From Chloroflexota bacterium (GTDB taxonomy: Bacteria; Chloroflexota; Dehalococcoidia; Lucifugimonadales; GCA-002723415), in the NCBI GenBank assembly GCA_002721445.1, contig PBKN01000009.1, positions 16,242-80,241 of the forward strand: 64,000 nucleotides of DNA, written 5' to 3'. The notes beneath the pieces were generated by a model. The model was not told where the DNA came from, did no database searches, and worked only from the letters and a program-made list of their open reading frames with translations. The position numbers and the translations under genes were made by a program. Shown here piece by piece: positions 6,376 to 60,732 of the stretch; positions within the stretch are counted from its first letter, which is position 1; every line of letters starts with the position of its first letter.

Positions 6376-6984
6376 GTGATTTCTAATTTATCTGAAAAAC
6401 AAATTAATTTTATAAATAAAATCGCCTATTCTGAAACAGGTTTATCTGTTTTTGAAACTACAGATAAGACATATACCATAATACCCCCATTTCCTATTTT
6501 GAATTCATCTTTTAACAATCATGATAAATTTAAAATTTTAAAAGATACATTAAACCAAAAATATATTATTGGAGTTGTTTTATTAAGACTCGGTAGGTAT
6601 GCAATATGTATATTAAAAGGCGAAGAACTATTACATACTAAAACTAAAGACAGATATGTGAAAAACAGACACAAAGCTGGAGGTTCGTCACAAAGAAGAT
6701 TTGAAAGAAGCAGAGAAAGATTAATTAGAGAATTATATGATAAAACATGTGAAATAACTAAGGATATTTTTGAACCTTATGAAAATAAAATTGATTACTT
6801 ATTATTTGGTGGAGAAAAACATACAATAAATGGTCTACATAAAAGGTGCACTTATATAGAAAAATTTAAAAAACAAACTTTAAAGAGATTATTGTCAATT
6901 CAACATGAACCTAACCAAAAAACTTTAGAAAATATTCATAAAGAGGTATGGAAAAGTAAATTATATGAAATTTCTAATATATAA
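6376..6984 (+). CDS. Vms1/ANKZF1-like release-factor-fold (VLRF1-like) protein, putative peptidyl-tRNA hydrolase
   Basis: YIIGVVLLRLGRYAICILKG...HTKTKDRYVKNRHKAGGSSQRRFERSRE parallels the Vms1/ANKZF1 pattern (H)RYTV(R/K)xKxGxxQ with the catalytic Gln loop. The Gln codon is at 6691..6693. The start is uncertain: GTG 6376 has no SD, and the frame is open from 6229 with no ATG/GTG/TTG. Confidence 0.55.
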   Translation: MISNLSEKQINFINKIAYSETGLSVFETTDKTYTIIPPFPILNSSFNNHDKFKILKDTLNQKYIIGVVLLRLGRYAICILKGEELLHTKTKDRYVKNRHKAGGSSQRRFERSRERLIRELYDKTCEITKDIFEPYENKIDYLLFGGEKHTINGLHKRCTYIEKFKKQTLKRLLSIQHEPNQKTLENIHKEVWKSKLYEISNI

Positions 6985-19418: not shown

Positions 19419-22337
19419 TTGTCTTTGAACGCAATATGGCAACGTTGGATGCTTAAACCTTCATGGCTGCTCCAAGTAGTATTTTCGGTTTTTCTATTTT
19501 TTGATGCCTATTTTGGGTTAATCCATAACAAAGGAATAATTACCTCATTAGGTTTATTAACAGGCGAAATAAAGTGGCTAACATTATTCGTCGAAATGAT
19601 GGCAGGCATCCTTCTCCTAGTCAGAATAATACTTAACCAGATAGATATTAGGTGGAAAAGTACAGTAATCATATTTACACCTATTATAGTGACTTTGGTT
19701 GGGTTTGTTGTTCTTGATTTCTTACTAACTGGATTGGGTAGATCAGCCACATTGAATTTCAACTTATCTTCGCTAGGATCAAGTGGTCTCTACTGGTCTG
19801 CAGTTTATATCAGCATAGCAATAGGCTTGACAATCACTTATAAGGTTCAACGTTTCGCTAATTTCGCACAGGCAGAAATGATGCTCTTTGGAGCTTACGT
19901 GGCTTTAACTTTAATGTGGTCCGATAGGTTTTTCCCGATTTCAAATGCACCTAAGGACGGATCTCTCAATTGGGAGTTGATAATTTGGTCTGGAATCAGC
20001 GCATTTATTATAACTGGTATTATTGGTTTAATTATAGATAAAGTAGTTTATAAGCGATTTAGAAACAAAATGGCTACTCCACAAGTAATGATGATCGCTT
20101 CTCTCGGAGTATCAATGGTACTTCGTGCCATACTTTATATGCGTTTTAGTGCGAGTACTCACCGTTTCATACCAGATCGAGATTGGAGGCTTAGCACAGC
20201 TACGTTTGAAATTCCTACTAAGCAATTACAACTCCACCTAGGAGATCGTATTAATGCTCCTTTAGTAGATATCGTTGGAAACGTTAATTCATATGGATTC
20301 GCCTACTCGAAGGTAGCCCTTGTAGTAGGTATATTCGGTGCAATCATTCTCTTGTTATTTATCTTACATCGCACTAGCCTTGGAAGACAAATGCGTGCAG
20401 TGGCTGACAACTCGGATCTCGCTGCATCCAGCGGAATTCACGTCGAACGTGTGCACGGGAGCACCGCCTTCCTTTCATCTGGAATTTCTGGTCTTGGCGG
20501 TGCATTACTAGCAGCGATATTACCAATCAACCCTGAACTAGGCCTGACATTGCTATTACCTGCGTTTGCAATCATCGTTCTGGGTACTATTGGTTCCATC
20601 CCGGGTGTAATCATTGGATCATTAATAATCGGATTATTGAGAGCTACCTCAGAGCCTGTGTTAATTGGTGCTGGAAACGCATTAGATCGTCCAACTGCTA
20701 CTGGTTTTGCAGAAGTTATGCCTTTCATCTTCCTTATCGGATTACTTCTATTAGCACCTCGGGGTATAGGCTCAGCGATTCAAGATTGGAATATTAAACG
20801 GATTCGAAAGAAGCGTCTGTCACAACAAAATAAAAAATCTCCTAATCCTCAATTGAATAAGGTCTTTATTCTACTAAACCCTCTATCAGATACCTTATCT
20901 CAAGCTATAATTTATATTTACCAAGTCAAACAAGTGATTAATATACTAATGGAATTAATAAAAAAGACTATAAAAACTTATAGTGGATTACTGAAAAAAT
21001 GTACACTTAAACTATTAGCAAAGATAAAATTCACTGGACCTAGCAGAACAGATATTCTATCAGGATTACGTATCAAGCCGAGTAATTGGGTACGGATTAA
21101 AAGGGAAACAGAACGTGGTTCATGGATAACATTCGCTATTCTTTTTCTATTGCTAGCCTGTATTGTTTGGATACTCCCAAGTGTTACCACTCTTACAAAG
21201 GTGTTACAAGTCGCTCGTATCATTACGCTTGTAAGTATTTTTAGCTTGGCTTGTTTCTCTCTCAATTTGCATACAGGTTTGACTGGTATGACTAATTTTG
21301 GAGTTATTTTCTTTGTTGGCATTGGAGCAGTGGTTGTGGGTTTACTTTCAGCTCCAGTTGCAACAAATGGCTATGGGTGGAATCCATTTATGGCTACAAT
21401 CGTTGCCGTCATAATATCAGCTACAATTGGATGGTTACTTGCATATCCTACTGCTAGACTCAGGATGGATTACTTTGCCATAGTCACAATTGCTCTTGGC
21501 GAAGTACTAAGAATTTCTCTTCAAGCAGAACCTTTACTTCGTGCTGGTACTACTACATCAGCTATGGGTATTTCACAATTTTCTCGTCCACTCGAAAGTT
21601 GGTGGGAAAATGGACCATCTGAAATGGTGGGGAATTTACTTGGGCTAAATATCTCAGCACCATATGTAGTATTCCTGTCTATCATATCAGCATTATCAGT
21701 AATTGTCGTCTGGTTCATACTTAACACTGTCCTTCTATCTCCCTGGGGAAGGATTCTCCGTTCGATAAGGGATGATGAAATAGTAAGCCAGCATCACGGA
21801 CACAACATTCTTATTCACAAGGCAGCTAGCCTCGCCTTGGGTGCTGCTATAGCCGCCCTGGCTGGCGCGCTTTGGGCTTGGTTAAATACTAATGTATGGC
21901 CAGATTTCATGAATCCAGTTCGTACTACATTTCTAATATGGGCAGCTTTTATAGTTGGAGGTCGTGGTAATAACAGAGGAATGATTATTGGAGCATTTCT
22001 GATAGTTATAGTCGAATTTATATTCAACGTAATGGTTGTATCTAGAGGTAGTGCCAGCTTACCATTTCATAATATGACTTCATATCTAGATAATGTGTTT
22101 TCTTGGTTAATATTAAATGTTGGAGGAATTATATGGTCAGATCGATCAATTACTGAGATTTTCCCTAAAGGGGATATTATCTTATCTTTACCTCATCTAA
22201 AATTGGCACTAATTGGAGTTGTAATTGTAGGCACATTACTTACATCTTCTAAAGGTTTATTACCTGAAGTTCCTAGCCGACCAAAAAGACCTTCCAATTC
22301 ACACTCAAATTTGGATAAAGAAGGGAGTTCAAAATAA
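19419..22337 (+). CDS. fused LivH-LivM type ABC permease (972 aa)
   Basis: The N-terminal half has LivH-like helices (…GLTITYKV..FANFAQAEMM…) and the C-terminal half is LivM-like (…HTGLTGMTNFG…). They are joined by a K-rich linker of about 110 aa. The TTG start is uncertain. Confidence 0.75.
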   Translation: MSLNAIWQRWMLKPSWLLQVVFSVFLFFDAYFGLIHNKGIITSLGLLTGEIKWLTLFVEMMAGILLLVRIILNQIDIRWKSTVIIFTPIIVTLVGFVVLDFLLTGLGRSATLNFNLSSLGSSGLYWSAVYISIAIGLTITYKVQRFANFAQAEMMLFGAYVALTLMWSDRFFPISNAPKDGSLNWELIIWSGISAFIITGIIGLIIDKVVYKRFRNKMATPQVMMIASLGVSMVLRAILYMRFSASTHRFIPDRDWRLSTATFEIPTKQLQLHLGDRINAPLVDIVGNVNSYGFAYSKVALVVGIFGAIILLLFILHRTSLGRQMRAVADNSDLAASSGIHVERVHGSTAFLSSGISGLGGALLAAILPINPELGLTLLLPAFAIIVLGTIGSIPGVIIGSLIIGLLRATSEPVLIGAGNALDRPTATGFAEVMPFIFLIGLLLLAPRGIGSAIQDWNIKRIRKKRLSQQNKKSPNPQLNKVFILLNPLSDTLSQAIIYIYQVKQVINILMELIKKTIKTYSGLLKKCTLKLLAKIKFTGPSRTDILSGLRIKPSNWVRIKRETERGSWITFAILFLLLACIVWILPSVTTLTKVLQVARIITLVSIFSLACFSLNLHTGLTGMTNFGVIFFVGIGAVVVGLLSAPVATNGYGWNPFMATIVAVIISATIGWLLAYPTARLRMDYFAIVTIALGEVLRISLQAEPLLRAGTTTSAMGISQFSRPLESWWENGPSEMVGNLLGLNISAPYVVFLSIISALSVIVVWFILNTVLLSPWGRILRSIRDDEIVSQHHGHNILIHKAASLALGAAIAALAGALWAWLNTNVWPDFMNPVRTTFLIWAAFIVGGRGNNRGMIIGAFLIVIVEFIFNVMVVSRGSASLPFHNMTSYLDNVFSWLILNVGGIIWSDRSITEIFPKGDIILSLPHLKLALIGVVIVGTLLTSSKGLLPEVPSRPKRPSNSHSNLDKEGSSK

Positions 22338-40783: not shown

Positions 40784-43627
40784 TTATGGTTTAACTTTAA
40801 ACATTTTATCTGGGATTGGAGAAAGTAAGTTAACAGGTATTGGTTCAAAAATACTATTATTTTTCGACCATAATATCTTCATCATAGAAGAATTCAAATT
40901 GAATAAATTTTTAAATTCAATTTGAATTCTATTTTCACCCTTGTTTAAATATACAGGTTCATACTCTACACTTGAATATGAAGAAGCTTTTTCTTGTAAA
41001 GTATTAAAATTTAGATTAATAATCACTTCACTTTGAGAATCAATTTTAAAAATATAATTGTCATCAGTTGGAATATTTATATATGCTTCAAATAAAGAAG
41101 TATTAGGTTCTTCTAATTTACTTTCATACCAAAATGGCTCAGAAGAATTTATTATATACGAATTATAATCATCATTATTTATTACTACATTAGGTTCAAT
41201 TGAAAAGAAAGATGCTAAAAATCCATACGGTTGAATAGGTTCTTTATATAAATTATTATTACCTATCAATTCAAAACCTTTCCCAGGAGGCTTCCAATAT
41301 AGAGCAGTAAAATAATTATAATCTATATTATCCCCTTCAATCAAAATCTTATGTATTCCAACTGCTGGATATAGATCTATGGATTTTTTATTTTTACTTA
41401 AAATTGGTCTGCCATCAAAGTACATTTGAACATCATCTTTTGATTCCAAATAAAATTTATATAAACCAGGTTCTTTTATATAAATAGCACCTTCCCAAAC
41501 ATAACTTTCAGGAACTTTACTTGAATATTTTTCAATATTCCAATTCTGTTGGCTAAATAAAAGTGTTTCATATACTTCTTCTTTATTAGAATAAATATAT
41601 TTAGCATTTAATCCATTTGACAAAGTTAAATCATCTTTATTTAATACTGCAAGATAGTAGAGCAAAATTTCTTCGTTAGGTGAAGTAATTATTGAATACT
41701 GACCATTAGGATAATATAGTTTTAATAAATCATACATACCTTTATCTCTTGGTTCTAAATATATTGCTACACCTTGCTCAATAAGATTTGGTGAAATAGG
41801 CAATTCTTCTGGAAGAATCACTAGGAAATCATCATTATCTGTAAGAACATTTAAGGTTAAAGATCCATAAAAATGCCTAGATCCTCTAATATCAAAACCA
41901 TCCTGTCGTTTATTTATAATATCTTGAGCAATTAATGTATGATCAGTAGAAAATGCAGAATAAACTTTATCATCTGTAGAGTATGTGTAAAAATAAAAAT
42001 ATATATTCAAAAATATAATGAGAATAACAATAAACCCAAAAAGATAATTTATTTTACTTCTTATAAATTTCCATGGAACTATACTGCTAAATATCCAAAA
42101 AGTATTTATTCCTAATGTAATAATAATGATTACAGGAGGAATAACTCCTATAGTTTTCATAGAATCTGGCGTATTCCATGAAATACTCAATATCCCCGGT
42201 AACAACATAAAAAATAACCAAATAAGCAAAAATCTAAAACGTAAATCTTTATAATTAGCTAAGCAAACTGATAAACCCATTATTAAAAACACACCTGAAA
42301 TAAAATCTAACATTGGGAAACCTACTACATTATGCCTAGGATTAGAATCACCTAAGTAATTAAACATTGCTAAATATTCAGAAAAATTCCTGATAATTTG
42401 ATATATAAATTCATCTATATCAAAATTATTAAATATATAATCATTTGTAGGGTTAATTAAAACACCTTGTCCATTCATAAACATAGATAGGATTGATGGG
42501 GCAGAAATTATTAAAACCCCCAAAACAATAAACATTATTTTTTGTAAATATTTATACCAATTAAAATCTAAGAATTGACGAGAATAAGTAAATAAATATA
42601 AAAAAATAACAATCGAGAAAATACAAAAAGAAAAATTAAACCAAACCCCTAAACCTAATACTCCTCCTAAACCCGCATAATCTAATGGCTTATTATTTTT
42701 TAAAGTTCTAAATAACATCCAAGAAGCTAAAAGCAGTAATAAGGGTAAAACAATTATAGGTAAACTCATTCTACTCCATATTAATTCCCATCTCATTGTC
42801 GCAATCAATAAGCTTGAAATTAATGCAATCCGATTACCAAAAATAAGCCTTACAAATAAGAACATAAAAATTATTGATAATAATGATATAAAAATACTCT
42901 GTATCCTCCCTACAGACACAGAAACCCCAAATAGTTCTATTAAAAATGTTGTAGGAAGTAAATATAAATTAGAAATATTAATAGATTGTGAATATTCAGA
43001 TATTTGATTTAAATTATCTATTAAAGATTTTGCTTCCCAAATTATAACTGCTTCTTCATACCATAAACCTTTAGGTAGTTTATTAATATTATATATTCTT
43101 AGAATAAAAGCTAAAATTAAAATAAAAAATAATAAAACCCATATAAAAGAAATATTAATATTTTTAATATTAAGGTTCTCATAATTTACTATTAATTTTA
43201 ATTTTTCAATAACAAATAATGAATAAAAACTAATTATTGAAAATATAAAAAATAATAAAGCAAAAGCATTATAATCATTATTTCTAAATAACAAACATGC
43301 AATAATACACATTGTAAAACTAAAAATTAAAAAAATTATTCTCATATTATTCCATTTGAAAATAAATTCAGAATTTTTATACGACGTAGAAAAATTTTTT
43401 TGAAAAATAAAATTTTTAGCACTTCTTACTGCAAAGAACATTGCTACAAAAGAAATACATAACGGAGTTATAGACCATATATATTTTTCATTAGTAATTA
43501 AAATTTGAAAAATTACTGCTAATATAAATGAAAAAAATACTAAAATAAACCGCATAGAGTTAGACGATTTAGAACTCATTTGGAATTTTAAATTATAATT
43601 TTTATACATAAAGTAATATCTGAACAA
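40784..43627 (-). CDS. GT-C fold (PMT_2/ArnT-like) membrane glycosyltransferase fused to C-terminal PA14-like domains
   Basis: About 560 aa of polytopic membrane domain with a first-loop acidic motif (KGLWYEEA). It is followed by GLNAKYIYS...YVWEGAIYIKEPGLYKFYLESKDDVQMYFDGRPIL (PA14 pattern) and a second similar module. The start is uncertain (TTG 43627, ATG 43609 or ATG 43579). Confidence 0.6.
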   Translation of the reverse strand: MFRYYFMYKNYNLKFQMSSKSSNSMRFILVFFSFILAVIFQILITNEKYIWSITPLCISFVAMFFAVRSAKNFIFQKNFSTSYKNSEFIFKWNNMRIIFLIFSFTMCIIACLLFRNNDYNAFALLFFIFSIISFYSLFVIEKLKLIVNYENLNIKNINISFIWVLLFFILILAFILRIYNINKLPKGLWYEEAVIIWEAKSLIDNLNQISEYSQSINISNLYLLPTTFLIELFGVSVSVGRIQSIFISLLSIIFMFLFVRLIFGNRIALISSLLIATMRWELIWSRMSLPIIVLPLLLLLASWMLFRTLKNNKPLDYAGLGGVLGLGVWFNFSFCIFSIVIFLYLFTYSRQFLDFNWYKYLQKIMFIVLGVLIISAPSILSMFMNGQGVLINPTNDYIFNNFDIDEFIYQIIRNFSEYLAMFNYLGDSNPRHNVVGFPMLDFISGVFLIMGLSVCLANYKDLRFRFLLIWLFFMLLPGILSISWNTPDSMKTIGVIPPVIIIITLGINTFWIFSSIVPWKFIRSKINYLFGFIVILIIFLNIYFYFYTYSTDDKVYSAFSTDHTLIAQDIINKRQDGFDIRGSRHFYGSLTLNVLTDNDDFLVILPEELPISPNLIEQGVAIYLEPRDKGMYDLLKLYYPNGQYSIITSPNEEILLYYLAVLNKDDLTLSNGLNAKYIYSNKEEVYETLLFSQQNWNIEKYSSKVPESYVWEGAIYIKEPGLYKFYLESKDDVQMYFDGRPILSKNKKSIDLYPAVGIHKILIEGDNIDYNYFTALYWKPPGKGFELIGNNNLYKEPIQPYGFLASFFSIEPNVVINNDDYNSYIINSSEPFWYESKLEEPNTSLFEAYINIPTDDNYIFKIDSQSEVIINLNFNTLQEKASSYSSVEYEPVYLNKGENRIQIEFKNLFNLNSSMMKILWSKNNSIFEPIPVNLLSPIPDKMFKVKP

Positions 43628-43630
43628 CTG

Positions 43631-46066
43631 TTATTCTGAATGTACAATTCCTTGTTCGAAAAGTAAATCAATCTGCTTACTACTATAATTTAAATTAGCT
43701 AATATTTCCCTAGTATGCTCCCCTAACTTAGGAGTTGTTTTGAATTTATTATAATGAGTGTTTTCAAATCTAATTAAATTTCTTAAATATTTCATATCAC
43801 CATAATCTTTATGATAAGATTCACCAACAATATCATCTGAAACAACTTCAGAATCATCAAAAAAATATTTATTGTAATTTAAAGATAATTTAATAATATT
43901 AATACCAAATTCCCTTAAATTCTTAACACAAAAGGATGAATTGTTACTTTCAAAAAATTCTTCAAATTTTAATTTTAAATTATTTGAACCATATTGAATA
44001 TTTTCAAATTTATCATTATCATCTAAATTTTCCATAGAAATATTCAAATATTTTAAAAAAGAATCAAATTGATCATTTGAATTAATTATCAAATATATCC
44101 AGCCGTCTTTTGTTTTATATATTCTATGAATTAAAGACATTCCATATTGATCAGGATCTGAATATTTACGTATTTTTTTCCCTTTATATTTTAGGAATTC
44201 TTCACTACTTAATAATATACCTGCATCTAATAAAGAAGCTTTAGCCGTTTGGATTATACCTTTGGTTTCACGAACATATAAAGCCATAACTGCACCTAAA
44301 ACACCTAAGGCGCCACCTGTATAATCAGTAGGTGCTTGTTCCCCTAAAAAAACTGGCCCATTATCTGCTCCACCTTGAGCGTGTTGCAAGCCCATCCATG
44401 CTTGAGACAAAGGATCTAATCCTGCTCTATGTGCATATGGTCCTTCCCATCCAAACGCAGTTACATGAGTTTCAATAATCTTAGGATTAACTGATCTAAT
44501 TATTTCAGTTGACAGTCCCATTCTATCAGTCGCACCTGGTCTTAAATTTGCAACTAAAATATCAGAGTTTGATGCTAAATCTAATGCTATTTTTTTACCT
44601 AATTCAGTTTTAGTATTAAATGATATTGAACGTTTTTGAGCATTTAAATATAAAAACATCAATGTACCAGCTGGCCTTGATATATCTCCATGTAAAGGTT
44701 CCATTTTAATTACATCAGCACCTAAATCGCCTAAAATCCTACCCAATGATGGCCCAGCAATAACATTTGTTGATTCAATAACTTTAATACCATTCAAAGG
44801 TGGTTCCATTATATTTTCAACTATTTTCTTATTTTCAATATCAGTTAAGTCAAAATCACCATTAAGATTAAATTCATTAATTATTTTATCTGTATCTTCT
44901 CCAGAAATGTGGCGAGGAGACCTAATATGTCCAGGAGTTTCAGAAAATTTAATAGGTAGACCCATTTGGGAAACGGTGCTCAATATAGGGTCGTCAACAT
45001 CAACAATCATTTGATTATATATAGCTTGGGGGTTATTCATTGATTCCTGTACTGTGCAAACTTTAGCATAAGGTACATCAATACTTTCAAATATTTCAGC
45101 CCATTCAGAATAATTTTTGGTCTTAATTACTCCAGCTACTATATCCCATAACTCTTCACGGTCTTTTTCAGTTTCAGGATCTCTTCCTTCTCCAAACCTA
45201 GGCTGATATATAACTTCAATTAAATCCATAACAGCTGCTGCGCGATCTATAAATTCTCCATGCACACATGCTAATTGAATCCAATTTCCATCAGCACACT
45301 CCATTACGCTATAGAAAGGACCTGCACCAAATGGAGGAGGTTTAGGATAAGCAAAATCCCCATTATCATCTGTTTCAGTTGATGATTTCCCACTTACATG
45401 AGAAGAAATTTTTTTAGGACTATCATCTTTATCAACACCAAACCTATAACCGTCACTTTTAATTTTGGGCTGATACATCAAAGCTCCTGACATTAAAGAA
45501 GTTTCTACTTTCCTACCATTTCCTGTTTTTGCCATAGAAAACAGTGAACTTACTATACCTATAGCTGATAGTATACCTGTAGAAACGTTAACTAATGGGT
45601 GAATTAGATGAGCTGGCCCATTTCTAAATGTAGGAATCCTATCAAGCACACCTAATCTAGCTAGTATTAAATCGACTAAAGGTTTTTCATTTTTAAGTAA
45701 AGAATTTTTGCCATAGGTAGTTATAGAAGCATGAATAAGTTTAGAATTTATAGAATATAAAGTATTTTTGTTTATAATTTTTTGTTTATTTGAAGATAAA
45801 GCGAAATCATCTATTAAAACATCGCAAAGTGAAATTAATTCATAAAGCCTTTTTCTATCTTTTAAGATATTTTGATAATCTAAAAAAATACTTTCTTTAC
45901 CTCTATCCCATACAGAAAAACCTGGAGATTTACGGCTATCAATTGACTTAACATCCTCTACTCTTATAACTCTTGCTCCATTATCACACAGCAACATAGT
46001 TGCATATGCACCAGCCAGTCCATCAGTCAAATCTAAAACTAAAAGGTTATCTAAAGAACTAGCCAA
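43631..46066 (-). CDS. tandem (duplicated) family III CoA-transferase (CaiB/BaiF-type), 811 aa
   Basis: There are two copies of the N-terminal Rossmann signature. The first is LLVLDLTDGLAGAYATMLLCDNGARVIRVE (aa about 9-38). The second is IKVIESTNVIAGPSLGRILGDLGADVIKME (aa about 435-465). Only the second half shows the G.D...QA..G catalytic-Asp motif (GLDPLSQAWMG). TTG start with AGGAG upstream. Confidence 0.7.
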   Translation of the reverse strand: MASSLDNLLVLDLTDGLAGAYATMLLCDNGARVIRVEDVKSIDSRKSPGFSVWDRGKESIFLDYQNILKDRKRLYELISLCDVLIDDFALSSNKQKIINKNTLYSINSKLIHASITTYGKNSLLKNEKPLVDLILARLGVLDRIPTFRNGPAHLIHPLVNVSTGILSAIGIVSSLFSMAKTGNGRKVETSLMSGALMYQPKIKSDGYRFGVDKDDSPKKISSHVSGKSSTETDDNGDFAYPKPPPFGAGPFYSVMECADGNWIQLACVHGEFIDRAAAVMDLIEVIYQPRFGEGRDPETEKDREELWDIVAGVIKTKNYSEWAEIFESIDVPYAKVCTVQESMNNPQAIYNQMIVDVDDPILSTVSQMGLPIKFSETPGHIRSPRHISGEDTDKIINEFNLNGDFDLTDIENKKIVENIMEPPLNGIKVIESTNVIAGPSLGRILGDLGADVIKMEPLHGDISRPAGTLMFLYLNAQKRSISFNTKTELGKKIALDLASNSDILVANLRPGATDRMGLSTEIIRSVNPKIIETHVTAFGWEGPYAHRAGLDPLSQAWMGLQHAQGGADNGPVFLGEQAPTDYTGGALGVLGAVMALYVRETKGIIQTAKASLLDAGILLSSEEFLKYKGKKIRKYSDPDQYGMSLIHRIYKTKDGWIYLIINSNDQFDSFLKYLNISMENLDDNDKFENIQYGSNNLKLKFEEFFESNNSSFCVKNLREFGINIIKLSLNYNKYFFDDSEVVSDDIVGESYHKDYGDMKYLRNLIRFENTHYNKFKTTPKLGEHTREILANLNYSSKQIDLLFEQGIVHSE

Positions 46067-46113
46067 TTAATAGATTCTCCTATATTTAGAATTAAATTAA
46101 AGTAATTATAATA

Positions 46114-46374
46114 TTATAATTTAGCTTTAACTATTGCTTTCAATTCTTTCATTCGAGTCAAAGTTGGAGTTTCACCATTTTCATCTTTTTTGTCATAAAT
46201 CTCTTCATTATCTAATATCACTTTTAAAACTCCTGAATCACCTGGGGTTAAAGTTATAGCAATATTTCCAGCTCCAACACTATAGAATTCAGCAACCATC
46301 CAGGCTGCTACAGCATGGTAACCTCAAGGAACGCAGTATTTTATCTCCATATTTATCTTTGATTTAAATGACAT
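46114..46374 (-). CDS. Rdx/SelW-like selenoprotein (TGA at 46324..46326 read as Sec)
   Basis: Hand translation: MSFKSKINMEIKYCVP-TGA-GYHAVAAWMVAEFYSVG...GVLKVILDNEEIYDKK..G..P. This matches the CxxU motif plus the Rdx fold pattern. AAGGA lies 6 nt before ATG 46374. ATG 46350 is an alternative start. Confidence 0.7.
46290..46310 (-). promoter_or_regulatory. candidate bacterial SECIS hairpin for the SelW-like gene
   Basis: mRNA U-AGCAGCC-[UGGAU]-GGUUGCU-G. The stem is 8 bp (two G-U) and starts 14 nt after UGA. The G-containing apical loop starts 22 nt after UGA. Confidence 0.5.
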
Positions 46375-46533
46375 AATAAATCCTTAAAATTTAGTATTTT
46401 ATGATTGCAGAATGTAACATGTACAAAACTAAAGTGTCAAGAATTTTATACAAAAAAATAATGCTATATATTTAATATATACTTTTAGTATAATAGTACT
46501 TATTAACAAAACATAATTAATTCAAATTAACAA

Positions 46534-60102: not shown

Positions 60103-60732
60103 TTACTTTTTAATACCTTTAGGCCAGGGTGGTTGTGGACGTTTTAATTCTCCAATAAATGGCATATCTCTGAAAATCTTAACTATATATTCAAAAAAAA
60201 TAATATAATCATCTTTATCCTTGGGGATAAATGTTTTAATAAACACTGCCTGCTCGTTATCAAAAACCAAAGTGGGAGTCCCAAATACACCATACTTTTG
60301 GACACCTTCCTGATGATCTTTTTTAACATTAATTATTAATTGAGGGTTATTAAAATCATCAATAAATTTATTTCTATCTAATCCAACATCAACTGCTAAA
60401 TCAAGAAATTTATTAAAATCATTTAATGGAAACCTAGGTGACATGTTATTTCTAGCATGAAGTACTGCGTAATGAAATCGTTCAAATAAATTTTGACCTT
60501 GTAATTTTGCTGATTCAGCACATACTGCAGATAATAAAGATCTAGTTTTTGATAAATCTTTACTTTCGATTTCAAAGATCGAAGAATCTTCCATTTTAGC
60601 TTCTTCAAGCTGAAAATGACGCCATTCAAATATCAATTGATCATTCTTTATATTTTTTACTTCTTGCAACCAAACTGTTGCGTTATATACGAAAGGTCAA
60701 GAATAATCATAATATATTATAAACTTGTCCAT
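60103..60732 (-). CDS. DsbA/kappa-GST-like thioredoxin-fold selenoprotein (TGA at 60697..60699 read as Sec)
   Basis: Hand translation upstream of the track's TTG start: MDKFIIYYDYS-TGA-PFVYNATVW-LQEVKN.... The TGA occupies the catalytic C/S-P position of the (F/Y)xD(x)xx[C/S]P(F/W/Y) motif. The C-terminal GVFGTPTLVF is the cis-Pro loop. GAAGG lies 7 nt before ATG 60732. Confidence 0.6.
60666..60681 (-). promoter_or_regulatory. candidate SECIS hairpin for the DsbA-like gene
   Basis: mRNA GCAAC-[AGUUUG]-GUUGC. The 5-bp stem starts 16 nt after UGA and the loop starts 21 nt after UGA. The stem is short, so this needs folding and covariation support. Confidence 0.35.

Follow-up and report, generated by a model that had tools for sequence, protein, structure and literature searches.

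We sought to establish how a single in-frame TGA codon is read in a short gene of a Chloroflexota genome. The DNA analysed was one stretch of 64,000 nucleotides, referred to here as the window, and its ORF list contains, for the minus strand, a called ORF of 61 amino acids (46114..46299) whose frame runs on upstream through a TGA. If the TGA is a stop, then the called ORF is the whole gene; if it encodes selenocysteine (Sec), then the gene begins further upstream and the called ORF is only its 3' part. The preliminary description of this DNA had favored the second reading, a SelW/Rdx gene with Sec in a CxxU motif, and our analysis supported it through the conservation of the TGA, the Rdx profile score and the existence of homologues in Cys form. 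Very probably, standard bacterial Sec recoding yields from this gene (46374..46114, minus strand) a SelW-like thiol-selenol oxidoreductase of the Rdx family, 86 residues long, whose active site is Cys14-Val-Pro-Sec17. The in-frame TGA is almost certainly a selenocysteine codon, and gene callers have therefore cut the gene to 61 of its 86 residues.

Results

One TGA interrupts the reading frame

Traced in the 5' direction along the minus strand, the 61-residue ORF met exactly one in-frame stop, the TGA at 46326..46324, before reaching an ATG at 46374..46372. The translation of this frame begins MSFKSKINMEIKYCVP-(TGA)-GYHAVAAWMVAEF..., and in full its 87 codons read MSFKSKINMEIKYCVP-(TGA)-GYHAVAAWMVAEFYSVGAGNIAITLTPGDSGVLKVILDNEEIYDKKDENGETPTLTRMKELKAIVKAKL-(stop). 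The full-length SelW-like gene accordingly spans 46114..46374 on the minus strand (86 codons plus TAA), as delimited by translation, Pfam, tblastn and a PDB profile search, and its predicted product, with U at the TGA, is the 86-residue protein MSFKSKINMEIKYCVPUGYHAVAAWMVAEFYSVGAGNIAITLTPGDSGVLKVILDNEEIYDKKDENGETPTLTRMKELKAIVKAKL. A Shine-Dalgarno-like AAGGA, read from the sequence at 46381..46385 (minus strand), lies 6 nt 5' of the ATG; in orthologues this position is taken by AGGG or AGGAG. This arrangement, one in-frame TGA and then an ATG preceded by AAGGA at 6 nt, had been described before and was found in place in every element.

The candidate CxxU redox motif occupies 46324..46335 (minus strand) and consists of Cys14 (TGC, 46335..46333), Val, Pro and the presumptive Sec17 (TGA, 46326..46324). 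The truncated form reported by gene callers (46114..46299, minus strand) starts at the Met of a conserved A-A-W-M peptide located downstream of this motif. A public orthologue, MBN19439.1, has been annotated in the same truncated form (61 aa) under the name 'hypothetical protein CL758_08210 [Chloroflexi bacterium]'.

The extended product is a SelW-like Rdx protein

For profile scoring of the 86-aa product, Cys was put in place of the TGA. The product scored 50.6 bits on the Pfam Rdx model (PF10262, cut-off 22.6), as compared with 24.2 bits for the truncated 61-aa ORF, and its residues 9-83 aligned with profile positions 2-73 of 74. The cut-off of TIGR02174 (CXXU_selWTH) was narrowly passed, at 34.9 vs 34.2. 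Membership in the Campylobacter-type equivalog NF041051 (SelTWH_Campy) was rejected, the score being 36.3 against a cut-off of 88.

A profile of 24 family members, used as the query in a PDB search, matched six solved bacterial Rdx proteins (2OKA, 2FA8, 3DEX, 2OJL, 2OBK and 2P0G) with E values from 3.5e-13, for the best match 2OKA, to 3e-10, and it matched mouse SelW (2NPB) with E = 0.01. In the alignments with 2OKA and 2FA8, the segment I-T-Y-C-T-Q-C of the solved proteins was paired with I-K-Y-C-V-P-U. Since Y-C-T-Q-C of these two structures stands in line with Y-C-V-P-[TGA], the TGA occupies the column of the second CxxC cysteine. Y13, C14, V15 and P16 were invariant among the 24 family members. 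Homology to the six solved structures predicts a thioredoxin-like fold for the product, and the CxxU motif would follow directly after the first beta strand, as it does in the Rdx family. The proposed identity of the gene as Rdx/SelW-like, with the TGA at the second redox position, was thus borne out both by the rise in PF10262 score upon extension and by the alignment of CTQC with CVP-U.

TGA is an ordinary stop in the window and marks redox positions in two families

TGA terminates 7 of the 58 ORFs in the window, and the products of these seven ORFs matched Pfam models to the end. The four examples from which the preliminary description had argued that TGA is a normal stop elsewhere, and recoding hence site-specific (5171, 23120, 23964 and 52785), were all among the seven, and the argument held. 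The window also contains 243 TGG codons. A reassigned code in which TGA specifies Trp or Gly was rejected because TGA ends these seven window ORFs.

It could still be supposed that the UGA of the SelW-like gene is read as a standard amino acid, either as Trp, by near-cognate decoding or under a reassigned code, or as Cys, by a SelB/tRNA(Sec)-like system working without selenium. We regard this as very unlikely. Gene callers did write W at the position in question under code 4, for the proteins P0001 and P0307-P0309, but the Pfam matches of the TGA-terminated window ORFs run to the end; since the code is not reassigned, each W at TGA in these gene calls is a short-contig artefact.

Further evidence bearing on a standard amino acid came from a second candidate selenoprotein gene located 14 kb from the SelW-like gene. 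This DsbA-like gene (60103..60732, minus strand; 209 codons; Pfam DSBA PF01323, 56.8 bits) has been called as a 188-aa truncated ORF, and it carries a TGA (60699..60697) at the first Cys of its CPxC motif (YYDYS-U-PFVY). A hairpin, GCAAC-AGUUUG-GUUGC, at 60681..60666 (minus strand) has a G in its loop and lies at a distance from the TGA like that of the SelW-like hairpin described below. Among homologues of the DsbA-like protein, those with 99%, 78% and 60% identity have TGA at this site, which gene callers rendered as W; others have Cys or are cut just after the site. A scan of metagenomes with a single-sequence query gave no match to the DsbA-like gene; with an alignment as the query, the metagenome loci in which the site could be located had TGA in 34 cases and TGC or TGT in 5. 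The SelW-like and DsbA-like genes occur together on a contig from a sister species (MDTE01099222.1; loci L001 and L170). DsbA-like proteins have already been described as a marine selenoprotein family (PMC1088965, PMC2398784).

The TGA codons in question in the window fall only at redox Cys positions, and they do so in two unrelated thioredoxin-fold families. This restriction is a signature of Sec and argues against a standard amino acid at the UGA, as does membership in an established selenoprotein family (PMC1088965, PMC2398784).

SelB occurs in the clade

We looked for the genes that Sec decoding would call for. No selA, selB, selD or tRNA-Sec was found in the window by ARAGORN, by Rfam, by Pfam on about 40 ORFs or by tblastn with E. 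coli SelA, SelB and SelD; ARAGORN and Rfam returned only tRNA-Lys from the window and its flanks, and the 10-kb flank on the low-coordinate side (L016-L018) contained no sel genes. Nor were selA, selD or tRNA-Sec present in 195 related loci (2.26 Mb), an absence that says little, since all of these loci had been picked for other genes. A 97-nt 'tRNA-Asp(atc)' called by ARAGORN in L065 was taken as a false positive and not as a tRNA-Sec.

SelB is widespread in Dehalococcoidia. Three loci from relatives of 40-43% GC (L053 2543..4402, L054 2864..4723 and L056 1983..3854) carry a full-length SelB gene at a distance of 6-8 kb on the upstream side of the SelW-like gene, and SelB homologues of the clade carry the SelB-specific winged-helix domains PF09106 and PF09107. 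In a word-indexed search for SelB, the best 120 of 8000 matches were all in genomes with a GC content of at least 38%. The abundant SelB group P0041 was rejected as the SelB of the window's lineage because it belongs to a 40%-GC lineage. A profile search of cluster representatives identified two SelB clusters with the amino-acid composition of low-GC genomes. Contigs of one of them (P0131; L109-L114) had 32% GC, and their tetranucleotide profile correlated with that of the window at 0.986, as compared with 0.952 for the other cluster and with a baseline of 0.989-0.996 for thirds of the window against the rest. One P0131 contig and L018, a contig with 99.7% identity to the window, belong to a single assembly, ERZ27257392. 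It is likely that the window's organism has SelB, a judgement made from composition and a shared sample rather than from a shared contig or bin.

Natural recoding of UGA to Cys by tRNA(Sec)-like tRNAs has been reported, and the lack of selA and selD among the 195 related loci would suit a standard amino acid at the UGA. We give only a very small chance to a selenium-independent system, kept for two redox proteins, that would place Cys or some other residue at these UGA codons by means of SelB and a tRNA(Sec)-like tRNA, and we saw no sign of one. Selenocysteine remains the preferred reading of this codon.

The TGA and the codons before it are conserved

A genome scan with one genome per species returned 80 loci as full-length tblastn matches, all of them in Dehalococcoidia/Chloroflexota/SAR202 MAGs with GC contents from 29 to 69%. 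When these genome loci were counted together with other loci, the codon in the Sec column was TGA in 83 of 85, TGC in one (L051) and CGA in one. The peptide 5' of the TGA (M-x-G-E-G-K-...-E-I-x-Y-C-V-P) was conserved in all loci, and no frameshifts or additional stops were seen in the orthologues. Orthologues neither begin 3' of the TGA nor carry frameshifts there, and two of the three findings that the preliminary description had named as refuting did not materialize. A pairing of Sec with Cys was present as well, in the TGC codon of L051 and in the Cys found in that column in the solved homologues.

We compared the window with L019, the representative of a sister species with 83.8% nucleotide identity to it. 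The 16 codons upstream of the TGA differed by 6 synonymous changes and 1 non-synonymous change, and the codons downstream by 16 synonymous and 8 non-synonymous changes. The fact that the upstream codon differences are mostly synonymous, like those downstream, indicates that the region before the TGA is translated and that the TGA is under selection.

Two types of match were obtained in protein searches. The first consisted of 61- to 68-aa proteins, all starting at the Met of A-A-W-M, and these are truncated gene calls. The second consisted of two 86-aa proteins, one with W and one with R at the Sec position. The DNA of the W form (L011) has TGA, and the call had been made under code 4 on a 523-bp contig. 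The R form is encoded with CGA and is represented by two contigs, each from a separate sample (L009 2089..2349 and L010 256..516). These CGA forms read CVPR, have 86% amino-acid identity to the window gene and retain an intact hairpin in which the G-U pair is now A-U. Sec is usually replaced by Cys, and replacement by Arg is unusual. The CGA forms could stem from a lineage that no longer decodes Sec, or the Arg variant could be functional. Perhaps they can do without the second redox position, which might point to a non-redox role of the subfamily.

Two paralogous SelW-like subfamilies exist in Dehalococcoidia, one with ...CVPU-[GAQS]-[YH]-H... and the other with ...CVPU-QHHATATWMANEF..., and TGA is present in both (L057-L098 vs L019-L056). 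One MAG, UBA1123, carries both paralogue groups (L043, L055). The YCVP-U subfamily as a whole (YCVP-U-x-[YH]-[HILF]), of which these are the two paralogue groups, was found in this analysis only in Dehalococcoidia/SAR202 MAGs.

If the TGA were a real stop, then either a 61-aa product initiated at ATG 46299 would be functional, or the gene would be a decaying pseudogene. Gene callers and NCBI do annotate the 61-aa form, but a product of this length would be left without strand 1 and without the entire redox motif, and inspection of the sequence in front of ATG 46299 revealed nothing like a Shine-Dalgarno sequence. The 61-aa ORF alone scores just over the Rdx cut-off, yet the Cys form and the solved Cys-form structures cover the upstream part too. 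The extra stops or frameshifts expected of a pseudogene are absent, and the TGA together with the 16 codons upstream of it has been kept, with mostly synonymous change, in 83 of the 85 sequences, which come from very divergent genomes. Even though SelB, in relatives and on composition-matched contigs, was the only part of the Sec machinery to be seen, we hold a real stop to be highly improbable. That a TGC or TGT was misread or misassembled as TGA is a negligible possibility, for although single-base variants of the codon exist (TGC in L051; CGA in L009 and L010), TGA was found in independent NCBI, JGI, ENA and Tara assemblies and in a single-cell genome.

A hairpin follows the UGA

A bacterial SECIS element is a hairpin located shortly 3' of the UGA with a G in a small apical loop. 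A SECIS-like hairpin lies inside the coding sequence at 46290..46310 (minus strand), that is 14-34 nt 3' of the UGA. Its stem, UAGCAGCC/GGUUGCUG, is 8 pairs long, two of them wobble pairs (one U-G, one G-U), and the first base of its loop, UGGAU, is the 22nd nt after the UGA. The energy of the hairpin was -11.7 kcal/mol. Folding of the 48 nt after the UGA gave z = -0.44, with 57 of 200 shuffles as stable or better, and folding of 71 nt gave z = -1.74. When compared with shuffled sequence, the hairpin thus displayed no excess stability in its folding energy, and what speaks for it is where it lies and that it is conserved.

In the window subfamily, the four pairs adjacent to the loop were formed in 33 of 33 distinct sequences. 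Below them, most sequences had a mismatch and then 2-3 more pairs. Changes from G-C to A-U on both sides of the stem were observed among the 33 sequences, 4 of which have them at one pair and 1 at a second pair; most of these both-sided changes trace to one clade and may be a single event. The second subfamily, that with QHHATATWMANEF, has a hairpin CGCCA-CGUGGA-UGGCG in a slightly different register, with all positions paired in 19 distinct sequences and with C-G changed to U-A, at synonymous sites, in three sequences. The loops of the two subfamilies differ (UGGAU vs CGUGGA). A C-ending codon at the top of the stem was retained in four of four low-GC sequences; in the window this codon is GCC, a rare one, which accounts for 8.2% of Ala codons in the window's genome.

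The stem is made of the codons of the conserved peptide A-A-W-M-[AV], which is present also in Cys-form Rdx proteins, and conservation of the hairpin is partly explained by the protein sequence. The hairpin is also kept in the Cys (L051) and Arg (L009) forms, and it therefore does not discriminate Sec from non-Sec genes. The minimum-energy fold of some relatives is a different one. The hairpin has the geometry and position given for it in the preliminary description, and it is conserved, but with an unexceptional energy and an overlap with the A-A-W-M codons it is weaker evidence for a SECIS element than had been assumed there. We consider it compatible with a bacterial SECIS, and mildly supported as one, rather than an independent proof of Sec insertion.

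Gene neighbourhood and transcription

A consensus scan identified a promoter-like site at 46411..46440 (minus strand), some 37 nt ahead of the ATG of the full-length gene, with TTGACA, a spacing of 18 nt and TG-TACATT (10 of 12 matches, the second hexamer being preceded by TG). It is no more than a pattern match, of a sort common in AT-rich DNA (12 observed vs 5.0 expected). A double CoA-transferase family III gene (43631..46066, minus strand; 811 aa; assigned by Pfam) begins 47 nt past the stop of the SelW-like gene. No terminator-like site was found between the two genes, and their adjacency is kept in 10 loci with 38-89% identity, which together make co-transcription plausible.

The two genes are part of a longer conserved order. 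In the window (40784..46374, minus strand) the SelW-like gene is followed by the CoA-transferase III gene (~800 aa), a PMT_2/PA14 membrane glycosyltransferase gene (~940 aa) and a cupin gene, and the same order was seen in L019, L040, L046, L047, L049, L051, L052, L055 and L056. This SelW-to-cupin order persists down to 38-44% identity of the CoA-transferase. In other lineages the cupin gene directly adjoins the SelW-like gene. Relatives of 40-43% GC have a conserved block of thiolase, selB, ..., GBBH-like_N, ..., SelW-like and CoA-transferase genes; in the window's lineage the selB block is separated from the SelW-like gene, which now abuts an enolase gene.

Several features elsewhere in the window were also recorded. 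A caa3 oxidase operon is located at 26-33 kb, and the lineage is aerobic with 30% GC. GC content is 0.34-0.39 at 16-24 kb and about 0.28 in the rest of the window. The ORF at 19419..22337 (plus strand; 972 aa) contains two BPD_transp_2 stretches and lies ahead of livG and livF; it resembles a branched-chain amino-acid ABC permease in which LivH and LivM are fused. At 6376..6984 (plus strand), a 202-aa protein matches acVLRF1 (PF18859, Actinobacteria/Chloroflexi VLRF1 release factor; baeRF family 10, eRF1 domain 2) and is a homologue of release factors of the archaeo-eukaryotic type. Just outside the window, a gene of the phosphotriesterase family (PF02126; L017 4919..5974, compared in L016 and L018) was called as one 351-aa protein in two assemblies and as 59 + 260 aa in a third, a split that may reflect strain-level disruption or an assembly error.

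Discussion

We infer Sec insertion, the SECIS function of the hairpin and the presence of selA, selC and selD in this genome from the evidence assembled above, and the following sequence of events would account for expression of the gene. Transcription would probably start at the promoter-like site near 46440, and the transcript may extend into the CoA-transferase gene. Translation would be initiated at ATG 46374. When the ribosome arrives at UGA 46326, the hairpin with the loop UGGAU would act as a bacterial SECIS and recruit SelB-GTP with Sec-tRNA(Sec). The charged tRNA would then outcompete release factor 2, so that selenocysteine is inserted at UGA 46326 and elongation proceeds to TAA 46114. 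The predicted product would adopt the thioredoxin-like fold of Rdx proteins, its selenenylsulfide/selenol-thiol couple following closely on strand 1, and, judging from its family membership, it would serve a redox function. To our knowledge, no bacterial SelW-like protein has a known cellular substrate.

The chief value of the result is a correction of annotation for the SelW-like and DsbA-like genes. Public calls of the two genes are either cut after the TGA or give TGA as Trp on short contigs (P0001, P0307-P0309, MBN19439.1), and searches on public protein sets will misreport the active-site residue of both. The result also places part of an abundant and formerly unassigned pool of marine SelW-like sequences in Dehalococcoidia/SAR202-type Chloroflexota, and it indicates that a streamlined, low-GC member of this group retains at least two candidate selenoprotein genes. 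Knowledge of selenocysteine decoding and of SelW function is unchanged by it. A shallow search of the searchable literature found no discussion of SAR202/Dehalococcoidia selenoproteomes. We regard as modestly new the taxonomic placement, with a near-invariant YCVP-U subfamily found here only in Dehalococcoidia/SAR202 MAGs, and the persistence of the gene in a streamlined, aerobic lineage of 30% GC.

The closest known systems are the SelW-like genes of the Sargasso Sea and GOS datasets (Zhang and Gladyshev; PMC1088965, PMC2398784, PMC1794560). They belong to the same Pfam family, are likewise marine and have CxxU after strand 1, and they share with the window gene an in-frame UGA and a coding-region hairpin with a G in a small apical loop; in the marine genes, too, SECIS hairpins were predicted inside the coding regions (PMC1088965, PMC2398784). 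SelW-like proteins with CxxU constitute the most abundant marine selenoprotein family (PMC2398784; PMC1088965) and have been listed among the bacterial families in which Cys homologues are few or absent (PMC1794560). In both sets Sec forms are by far the commoner, with 427 against 56 Cys forms in GOS and 83 against 1 in the window family. Studies of the GOS type made no organism assignment, whereas the window gene is placed in a low-GC Chloroflexota/Dehalococcoidia lineage. The YCVP-U subfamily may already be among the GOS sequences.

The solved Cys-form Rdx proteins (2OKA, 2FA8 Atu0228, 3DEX SAV_2001, 2OJL, 2OBK and 2P0G) are homologous to the window protein over nearly its full length, with the Y-C-x-x-C and A-W-[ML] motifs in register. 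They have CTQC where the window protein has CVP-U, and the C-terminus of the window protein is shorter. Mammalian SelW (2NPB) and SelT/SelH/Rdx12 belong to the same Rdx superfamily and have CxxU in the equal structural position, but their similarity in sequence is distant. Eukaryotic SelW relies on a SECIS in the 3'-UTR with SBP2/eEFSec, whereas the window gene would use a putative hairpin in its coding region together with SelB. In this respect the proposed mechanism is like that of E. coli fdhF and fdnG, in which a hairpin directly 3' of the UGA lies within the ORF, at a similar distance to the apical loop, and is recognized by SelB. The hairpin of the window family has no sequence similarity to the fdhF SECIS and, at 4-8 bp, is shorter.
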